From: a virus
Length of the DNA: 64,000 bases
Virus record (IMG/VR): IMGVR_UViG_3300046330_000229
Location: 18,266-82,265 of that record
Reading direction: 5' to 3' (one strand)
Shown: positions 23,846 to 24,115 of the stretch, piece by piece
Layout of the letters: each line of letters opens with the position of its first letter
Position numbering within the stretch: the first letter of the stretch is position 1
Notes under the pieces: model-generated
Database searches by the model: none
The model's input: only the letters and a program-made list of their open reading frames with translations
Told to the model about the DNA's origin: nothing
Program-made: the position numbers and the translations under genes

Positions 23846-24115
23846 TGCAAACTACATGCCAACTCTCCCCTTGCAAGAACTATACCAACGTATTGTTTTG
23901 ATACATGGTATGATACTTGCACTCTTCAATATTCATGCCTACTATATTTATATACATCCAGCATTGTATGTGCATTGACCATTGTCAGTGTCCTATAGAC
24001 GTATAGCGACTCTATCTACAGAGGAGCTATATGTTTGTGTATGTATCTATTATCTTTTAACTATAGACTTATTACAGCGTGTAATGATGTTGTGCATTCT
24101 GGTATATATATTGCA
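23846..24115. promoter_or_regulatory. cluster of sigma54 (-24/-12) sites
   Basis: TGG-N10-GCA matches at 23846-61(-), 23872-87(-), 23906-21(+), 24100-15(+); degenerate copy at 23925-40(-). Confidence 0.7.

Follow-up and report, generated by a model that had tools for sequence, protein, structure and literature searches.

A question raised by this locus is why a phage should carry a dense group of sites resembling the promoters of the host sigma factor sigma-54, facing both ways, in DNA where no obvious gene waits to be transcribed. The window (the whole stretch of DNA that was analysed, 64,000 nucleotides) comprises bases 18266-82265 of an 82,265-bp virus contig, and the positions below are those of the window. 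The first-pass annotation listed five such sites and proposed that they could serve as a decoy or sponge for sigma-54 polymerase, as a protein cap protecting the genome end or as a handle for DNA entry, rather than as ordinary promoters. A renewed search located all five of them, position by position. Together with a sixth, weaker site further to the right the boxes are:

23846-23861, minus strand: sigma-54-type box 1, TGGCATGTAGTTTGCA, an exact match which faces left
23872-23887, minus strand: sigma-54-type box 2, TGGTATAGTTCTTGCA, faces left, first member of a conserved minus-plus-minus triple
23906-23921, plus strand: sigma-54-type box 3, TGGTATGATACTTGCA, faces right, 34 bp after box 2, inferred start near 23932
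23925-23940, minus strand: degenerate box AGGCATGAATATTGAA, GC lost, 19 bp after box 3, which is the canonical distance of abutting convergent boxes
24100-24115, plus strand: sigma-54-type box 4, TGGTATATATATTGCA, faces right, toward the early block
24930-24945, plus strand: sixth, weaker box, CGGCAC-N5-TTGCA, 44 nt upstream of the first early ORF (24990)

The box AGGCATGAATATTGAA is classed as degenerate because it lacks the GC. It lies with four exact TGGYAY-N5-TTGC boxes within 270 bp of a 790-bp ORF-free gap, and neighbouring boxes are 17-35 bp apart from start to start. The first-pass annotation held that a similar density of boxes elsewhere in the genome or in shuffles would speak against its reading. 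A pattern search with TGGYAY-N5-TTGC gave 4 matches in the window, all within 23847-24114, and these same four are the sole exact matches in the whole 82,265-bp genome. Dinucleotide shuffles of the window contained 0.33 matches on average, and 0 of 100 shuffles reached 4.

The motif was also used by itself to scan viral contigs, with the divergent box pair as query and the same pattern reversed as control. The scan found 41 loci, which span 27-63% GC, and the reversed control found 0. Most of the 41 loci have extra boxes in the vicinity, and as many as 13 are packed into 600 bp. For an unselected control, 80 phage loci (1.04 Mb) were picked via an unrelated protein in a metagenome scan with a vWA alignment; they contained 3 boxes and 0 clusters. 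Chance as the origin of the cluster is ruled out by the shuffles, the reversed-pattern scan and the unselected control. A pattern of three boxes is present in 12 of the 41 viral loci and has only 10 matches in 596 Gb of bacterial genomes, all of them in metagenome bins; it is so rare there that dense clusters must be regarded as a phage trait.

What reads these boxes? Leave-one-out counts were made on 214 boxes from 58 cluster regions. Positions G2, G3, A5, T13, G14 and C15 show practically no variation, and a spacer of 5 is found in 214/214 boxes, with 0-1 boxes at spacers of 3, 4, 6 and 7. At the positions which the search pattern leaves free (158 boxes) there is T in 51% at position 0, a purine in 87% at position 7 and in 78% at position 8, and A or T in 95% at position 16. 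These free positions follow the sigma-54 consensus, so the boxes fit the sigma-54 signature; TGGCAT and TGGTAT are favoured over TGGCAC. The 16-mer is the same as that of bacterial sigma-54 (RpoN) promoters, TGGCAY-N5-TTGCW, with GG and GC invariant and the spacing fixed. The motif is common to phages without a shared detectable protein (G004, which carries it, shares none with the present phage), and the reader is therefore a host factor. To our knowledge sigma-54 is the only known host factor with such a specificity. The invariant positions match those important for sigma-54 in E. coli (Bonocora et al., PMC4591121). Comparison of sequences thus supports that the boxes are genuine sigma-54-type sites under selection, in a phage which has no activator of its own, and the designation as sigma-54 sites in the first-pass annotation is upheld by the 214-box counts and by the relatives described below.

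An extended -10 promoter (TGnTATAAT) was considered and rejected. Boxes such as TGGTATAGT and TGGTATGAT mimic it, but the third base is G in 214/214 boxes and the base corresponding to "-7" is T in only 40%.

Another possibility, which we consider very unlikely, is that the 16-mers bind a different sequence-specific protein, e.g., a terminase small subunit, an initiator of the kind that binds iterons, or a phage repressor. The R sites of lambda cosB and iterons bind the phage's own protein. The likeness to them is that several repeats of about 16 bp are found in mixed orientation, by a G/C-rich element and in a non-coding gap, and in eight unrelated loci the cluster is located 60-460 bp upstream of a DUF5681-TerL-portal operon. 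The difference is that such sites are specific to the protein of one phage, whereas the motif found here is identical in phages of 27-63% GC without any detectable shared protein, as expected of a host sigma site. Its information content equals that of sigma-54 (GG, TTGC, exactly N5), and the spacing between boxes varies, which makes the array unsuited to a fixed oligomer. A repeat array for terminase binding (cos or pac) was rejected on the same ground of a motif common to unrelated phages, and because the terminase genes are 12 kb from the cluster and the TerS candidate of the phage has no DUF5681 domain. The latter also disposes of the DUF5681 small terminase as a regular companion of the clusters, which is untrue for this phage.

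The phage encodes a portal, a large terminase, a capsid protein, a family-A DNA polymerase, a primase-helicase and a ribonucleotide reductase, as well as two ClpP-like proteins, a MoxR-vWA pair, Mom and a SET-domain protein. The first-pass annotation stated that none of its three AAA+ proteins has the GAFTGA motif of sigma-54 activators, and this holds. No phage protein scored above cut-off for the sigma-54 activator domain PF00158 (the best, a MoxR ATPase, reached 9.9 bits), and a GAFTGA-like motif was absent from all six frames of this phage and of five other sampled phages. The RpoN DNA-binding domain and sigma-70 region 2 gave nothing above cut-off in the phage either. An RpoN or a GAFTGA activator is encoded in none of the sampled phages. 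Shine-Dalgarno motifs precede 41-66% of the ORFs in the family, which argues against a Bacteroidota host.

The relatives tell whether the boxes are maintained. Among the loci of the motif scan G002, G003, G006 and G011 are related to the phage, with capsid, portal, terminase and polymerase 30-49% identical; the core proteins of G002, G003 and G006 are 35-49% identical to those of the phage. The closest relative is G005, with a portal of 78% identity. Family members were also picked by portal similarity alone, which gave ten long contigs; 10/10 have boxes and most have clusters. The cluster is at the same genomic place in G002, G003 (read in reverse), G005 and G006, and the layout shared by G002, G003 and G006 is a run of small genes, a C-rich tract, the cluster, an ORF-poor stretch of 0.5-1.7 kb and the early/replication block. 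ORF-poor gaps of this length after the cluster are also seen in G002, G005 and G006. The boxes are the only DNA in the cluster region that can be aligned between these genomes, and an alignment of the gap with that of G005 was not meaningful. The homologue of box 2 in G006 is TGGTATAGATCTTGCA, and the divergent pair of boxes 2 and 3 is kept there at a spacing of 34-35 bp. The third member of the triple, degenerate here, is intact or nearly so in G002 and G006, and the minus-plus-minus triple is found with similar spacings in this phage, G002, G006 and unrelated loci. The cluster of G005 reads minus, plus, minus, minus, minus, plus at the same position. Since the boxes are kept in place while their surroundings diverge, the pattern fits purifying selection on the boxes themselves, with individual copies turning over.

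Not everything around the cluster is kept. Relatives differ in whether their outer boxes are oriented toward the early block, and there is no homology between the first early proteins of G000 and G003. The gene beside the cluster in G003 is an HNH endonuclease insertion and not a conserved partner. Searches with the neighbouring 151-aa and SLT proteins found no relatives in viral contigs, and positions 23400-25400 gave no match in a DNA search of GenBank phages. The only cultured relative is a phage of Silvanigrella aquatica (portal 27%, TerL 29% identity), and it has no box cluster.

In the present phage the cluster is surrounded by the following features:

23760-24549, no strand: ORF-free gap holding the cluster, no ORF of at least 66 aa
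23800-23845, plus strand: C-rich tract that is poor in G and includes a C6 run at 23836-23841; the minus strand reads as a G-run starting 4 nt after the -12 end of box 1
23932-24065, plus strand: predicted structured RNA immediately downstream of box 3; of its three hairpins one has 13 bp, including three G-U pairs
24543-24553, minus strand: late-type motif TTAACATATAT, its eighth genomic copy, pointing left into the gap toward the cluster
24550-24750, minus strand: probable small gene of 66 aa with a basic N-terminus, divergent from the early block, no family match
24797-24769, leftward: sigma-70-like promoter TTGACA-17-TATAGT
24897-24868, leftward: sigma-70-like promoter CTGACA-18-TATATT
24924-24952, rightward: sigma-70-like promoter TTGACA-17-TACACT, its spacer containing the sixth box
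24990-25445, plus strand: first ORF of the early/replication block, 151 aa, no family match

To the left of the cluster a long run of small plus-strand genes ends at 23759, so that the leftward boxes point at the 3' end of a block of genes on the plus strand, and the first 11 kb in that direction contain no gene on the minus strand. On the other side, 875-1085 nt separate the rightward boxes from the next credible ORF (24990). The mechanical ORF list has only TTG- or GTG-started ORFs of at most 65 aa in the gap, and a low-GC, T-rich stretch covers 24001-25000. The statement in the first-pass annotation that no credible gene lies downstream is thus correct for 23760-24549, where no ORF reaches 66 aa, and too strong for what follows, where a plausible 66-aa ORF lies on the minus strand (24550-24750) and the early ORF at 24990 has the sixth box in front of it. 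The boxes of this phage are all in the early half of the genome; the late half uses TTAACATATAT instead, all 8 genomic copies of which are on the minus strand, the other 7 in the late region. G005 likewise has a leftward late-motif copy of this type 361 nt to the right of its cluster.

The model which we favour, with a confidence slightly below an even chance, states that the cluster is a docking module for the host sigma-54 polymerase, placed in front of the early block and acting mainly as a promoter hub which is bidirectional and dependent on an enhancer. The host sigma-54 holoenzyme would bind the boxes as closed complexes, and firing would need a host activator or an unrecognised phage factor. 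From the rightward boxes (23906 and 24100) transcription would yield a structured leader or small RNA and continue into the early block, whose first gene appears to have a box to itself inside a sigma-70 promoter. The leftward boxes, whose start region is covered by a G-run, would be promoters for leftward genes in some relatives, while in this phage nothing more than an antisense or abortive transcript would come from them. Since neighbouring boxes would overlap sterically, only one polymerase at a time could be accommodated in the core, and the boxes would compete. Such competition would give either a choice between the two directions or an occlusion of start sites.

Several observations agree with a promoter hub. 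Clusters are found in long gaps, with a median of 288 bp compared to 25 bp, and 5 of 14 are located between divergent ORFs compared to 55 of 494 other gaps; these figures come from crude ORF calls, and a looser count gives about half. The outward boxes of the relatives are 60-460 nt before the first genes of blocks, and a single box is found ahead of the first early ORF both here (44 nt) and in G005 (28 nt). The 134 nt downstream of box 3 fold with a z-score of -4.10, only 1 of 200 shuffles being as good, and for the gap as a whole the plus strand (z -2.5) is predicted to fold better than the minus strand (z -0.6). This folding suggests a structured leader or small RNA, for which the segment 23932-24065 is our candidate from modelling. 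The structured RNA is not conserved in the relatives (fold z -1.5 and -1.7), and a search of 23000-26000 in Rfam together with a tRNA scan gave no match.

Other observations are at variance with a simple set of promoters. The leftward sigma-70-like promoters and the late-type promoter point at the rightward boxes, and the G-run across -10 to +1 should hinder melting. Abutting convergent pairs, in which boxes face each other 17-20 bp apart, are found in 12 viral loci where 0.02 are expected. Some arrays alternate every 21-28 bp, others run head to tail every 16 bp. Boxes which abut or alternate in this way cannot all be occupied or fired at once, and this is not what promoter redundancy predicts. 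The view that the sites are something other than ordinary promoters has evidence on either side: the abutting convergent boxes point beyond plain promoters, and outward boxes at 60-460 nt before gene blocks speak for promoters. A decoy, a cap and an entry handle are all possible, each of them less likely than the promoter hub.

A sponge or parking site which does not transcribe is the first of these alternatives. It hypothesizes that the boxes hold sigma-54 polymerase or free sigma-54 as silent closed complexes, so that the replicating genome would titrate the factor away from the sigma-54 genes of the host, or would store polymerase on phage DNA. Such a site would have no use for an activator, which the phage lacks, nor for a gene downstream of the leftward boxes, where there is none, and the boxes, dense, overlapping, indifferent to orientation and near-perfect matches to the consensus, look suited to it, as does a G-rich start region that should resist opening. 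Viral contigs are also much richer in dense clusters than the 596 Gb of bacterial genomes, and most sigma-54 sites in E. coli are bound but silent (PMC4591121). However, each genome of the phage offers just 4-5 boxes, or 2-3 in some relatives, and for a sponge the fixed position between gene blocks, the outward boxes at promoter distance and the further single boxes right before early genes would all be unnecessary. We consider a sponge unlikely.

The silent E. coli sites (PMC4591121) resemble the present ones in being high-affinity sites that lack an adjacent gene, often with 360-760 nt to the next ORF, and in having a conserved site in varied surroundings. They differ in being isolated and mostly intragenic, whereas those described here are intergenic and clustered. 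According to the same ChIP-seq study the 5' UTR of E. coli sigma-54 mRNAs is often 360-760 nt, and no roadblock effect of bound sigma-54 was seen (PMC4591121); because of the latter the idea that the cluster is an insulator is given little weight.

The G-runs deserve separate mention. In G000, G003, G005, G023 and G024 the outermost outward box has a run of 5-9 G beginning 0-4 nt beyond its TTGCA; a C-rich tract or run adjoins the outermost box in G002, G003, G005, G006, G023 and G024; and runs of 7-18 G or C are found beside the clusters of most family members. The run is present with or without leftward genes and is for this reason regarded as a part of the box and not as a terminator of the upstream operon. 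As it would cover -10 to +1, it could make opening harder, lead to slippage at the start or promote an R-loop.

The last of these effects leads to a model of a transcription-primed origin, in which a poised sigma-54 promoter would fire into the G-rich stretch, the RNA of the R-loop would prime the family-A DNA polymerase, and the AT-rich gap would unwind. A promoter followed by a G-run is the layout of the ColE1 RNA II primer and of the mitochondrial LSP-CSBII primer. In addition to the G-runs 0-4 nt after the -12 element in the five genomes above, a box followed by G7 is found in 11 loci of the viral contigs and a box followed by C7 in 3, and the cluster has an ORF-free, low-GC gap next to it and lies just upstream of the replication module (PolA, primase-helicase). 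For an origin one would nevertheless look for an inflection of the skew, and there is none at the cluster site; the G-run is on the leftward side while the AT-rich gap is to the right; and G006 has only GGGGAGGG, 25 nt from its box. The case for an origin of this type is entirely one of analogy, and we regard it as quite improbable.

The sponge and the poised, replication-priming polymerase can be joined in a wider proposal, namely that phages of many lineages use arrays of boxes to capture host sigma-54 polymerase without making mRNA. We regard this as rather doubtful, if worth keeping in mind; if it is true, the host would be taken over via DNA sites and not by a phage protein.

Returning to the promoter hub, a precedent is the Pseudomonas phage YuA (Ceyssens et al., 2008, cited after PMC5053324 and the bioRxiv preprint doi 10.1101/2023.10.13.562163), which according to these accounts has host sigma-54-dependent promoters with an experimental rpoN dependence and sites active in a promoter trap, and is a precedent for a phage without its own activator. 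Like YuA, the present phage lacks an activator of its own and would use host sigma-54, but the YuA sites are single, unidirectional, weaker and located in the late region, while those described here are clustered, bidirectional and on the early side. The first 50 kb of the YuA record have no box cluster. In the literature searched, phage use of sigma-54 is described as rare and known from YuA alone, and we found no description of clustered sigma-54 boxes in phages, only the single YuA promoters.

Compared to bacterial sigma-54 promoters the boxes are here packed 17-35 bp apart in both orientations and with face-to-face pairs, a G-run covers the start region, there is no recognisable enhancer or activator gene, and dense clusters are nearly absent from the genomes of bacteria. 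The sixth box is a different matter. Overlapping sigma-70 and sigma-54 promoters are known from glmY/glmZ, and the sixth box, inside the spacer of TTGACA-17-TACACT with nearly coinciding predicted starts, resembles them; this likeness covers the sixth box and not the cluster.

The transcription programmes of phages are usually ascribed to host sigma-70, phage sigma factors or phage polymerases. In the present case an entire uncultured family, and many unrelated phages with it, maintain dense two-way clusters of perfect boxes in a constant control location and have no activator gene. Should the boxes be promoters, the early programme would be tied to the enhancer-binding proteins of the host and hence to its physiological state, and the overlapping layout would be a new promoter architecture. 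If they are not promoters, closed complexes would have found a new use. Either way the cluster offers a simple marker by which the control region of such genomes can be recognised in sequence.

The cap and the entry handle both presuppose that the cluster is at a physical terminus, where bound polymerase would cap the end or help the DNA to enter. The promoters A1-A3 of T7 form an early promoter cluster at the left genome end, where a long non-coding stretch precedes the early genes. As in T7, several promoters for host polymerase would here be placed in a long non-coding stretch before early genes, which recalls the T7 left end, but in T7 they are sigma-70 promoters, all rightward and at a proven end, and here they are of sigma-54 type and point both ways. 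Among the nearest relatives of TerL are T5-like phages, in which the packaged DNA has defined ends. Short loci that make up a whole contig have a cluster at their start or end, and the contig ends of G018, G021, G022, G023, G024 and G008 fall in clusters or at most 1 kb from them, far above chance. A closer look at these ends weakens the idea that they are physical termini. Where the ends could be read, the copies of the overlap at contig ends differ in homopolymer length (C8 versus C9, G14 versus G18), and breaks in homopolymers of differing length point to artefacts of sequencing or assembly; since homopolymers adjoin the boxes, assemblies of such genomes tend to break there. The present contig closes on itself by a 24-bp overlap with the cluster in the middle, so no genome end is placed at the cluster, and G002, G004 and G006 also close as circles elsewhere than at their clusters. 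Contigs from public runs cross 23800 unbroken in two runs, and silent closed complexes cannot pull DNA. A device for the genome end is therefore extremely unlikely, and the premise of the first-pass annotation that the cluster marks such an end is not supported. As to the check which it proposed, whether related phages keep such clusters at their termini, the relatives have clusters at a fixed position, and their contig breaks at clusters lie inside G or C homopolymers.

The portal of the phage has more than 2000 relatives, many on contigs of 78-87 kb, and its DNA is found in many freshwater metagenomes, with 24 freshwater DNA runs and no RNA run among the matches listed. The contigs of four sequencing runs over 23300-25300 have no variants, joints or piled ends. 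In one run only, a unitig covering 23815-24463 has 2-3x the depth of its flanks.

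The motif TTAACATATAT is present in eight genomic copies, all of them on the minus strand, and seven of the eight lie in the late region.

Window 2191-2201, 3269-3279, 10570-10580, 12870-12880 and 24543-24553, minus strand: TTAACATATAT
Genome bases 1-18265, minus strand: three further copies of TTAACATATAT

Four of the seven late-region copies were checked, and all four precede late genes, namely those for capsid, scaffold, portal and terminase. Judged from position and strand, the motif fits a phage-specific late promoter which would be read by an unrecognised factor. The relative G003 carries an analogous motif, TTAACAAGTTA, in six copies on its late strand.

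Sigma-54-type boxes are also nested in sigma-70-like promoters at two places in the window, and a short reading frame follows box 1 of the cluster, the leftward-facing box at 23846-23861.

Window 24924-24952: sigma-70-like promoter TTGACA-17-TACACT, its spacer containing the sigma-54-type box CGGCAC-N5-TTGCA
Window 58440-58475: TTGACA-17-CATACT with the overlapping box TGGCATACTGTGTGCA, immediately 5' of ORF 58487
Window 23774-23834, minus strand: perfect Shine-Dalgarno sequence AGGAGGTG, 8-nt spacer and the 14-codon ORF MGRGDSLTSSLSTI

In the first nested pair the predicted starts of the two promoter types are almost identical and lie 34 nt upstream of the first early ORF. The box of the second pair is not a normal sigma-54 promoter, because it is too near the ATG of ORF 58487. 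The Shine-Dalgarno sequence and 14-codon ORF are placed right after box 1 and its G-run; no counterpart of this unit was found in the relatives G002 and G006, and the arrangement may be due to chance.

In the public run X12 one unitig, 23815-24463, takes in the cluster and the greater part of the gap; its depth is 36.8, versus 12.6 and 17.2 for its neighbours. A variant contig departs from the window sequence after 24489. The raised depth was not reproduced in the other three public runs. The segment is either common to several strains or a repeat.

Insertions, repeats and homopolymers were noticed in other phage genomes, some of them beside the clusters.

G003 36404-37318 (L061:16404-17318): 304-aa protein with many zinc ribbons and an HNH endonuclease end, inserted directly next to the cluster
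G002 about 19250-19730 (L056): big tandem array with about 20 or more units, GCTAATCTTAG and its variants, repeating every 15 bp
G021 (L211/L212), G023 (L213/L214), G024 (L216/L217), G018 (L218:2419) and G020 (L225:3011): G or C homopolymers of 8-18 nt adjoining box clusters

The 304-aa protein is probably a homing endonuclease. The G002 array lies 4 kb past the cluster, and a repeat of 66-bp period is present in G006 in more than 30 copies at several places. The homopolymers, which differ in length between the two contig-overlap copies, probably account for the breaks in assembly, and these tracts may be hypermutable.

Extreme box layouts were found in other phages and metagenome bins (L014, which is G008 63729-63974, L040, L074, L071 and L076), either head-to-tail with a 16-bp step or as six boxes in strictly alternating orientation with a 21-28-bp step. 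A further layout is spread over several kilobases.

L007 (G001 11015-15262): five repeats of a divergent box pair, the offset constant at 41 bp

Here the repeats follow one another at intervals of about 540-2190 bp (540-720 bp in three cases), which gives the impression of small cassettes that each carry a bidirectional pair of their own.
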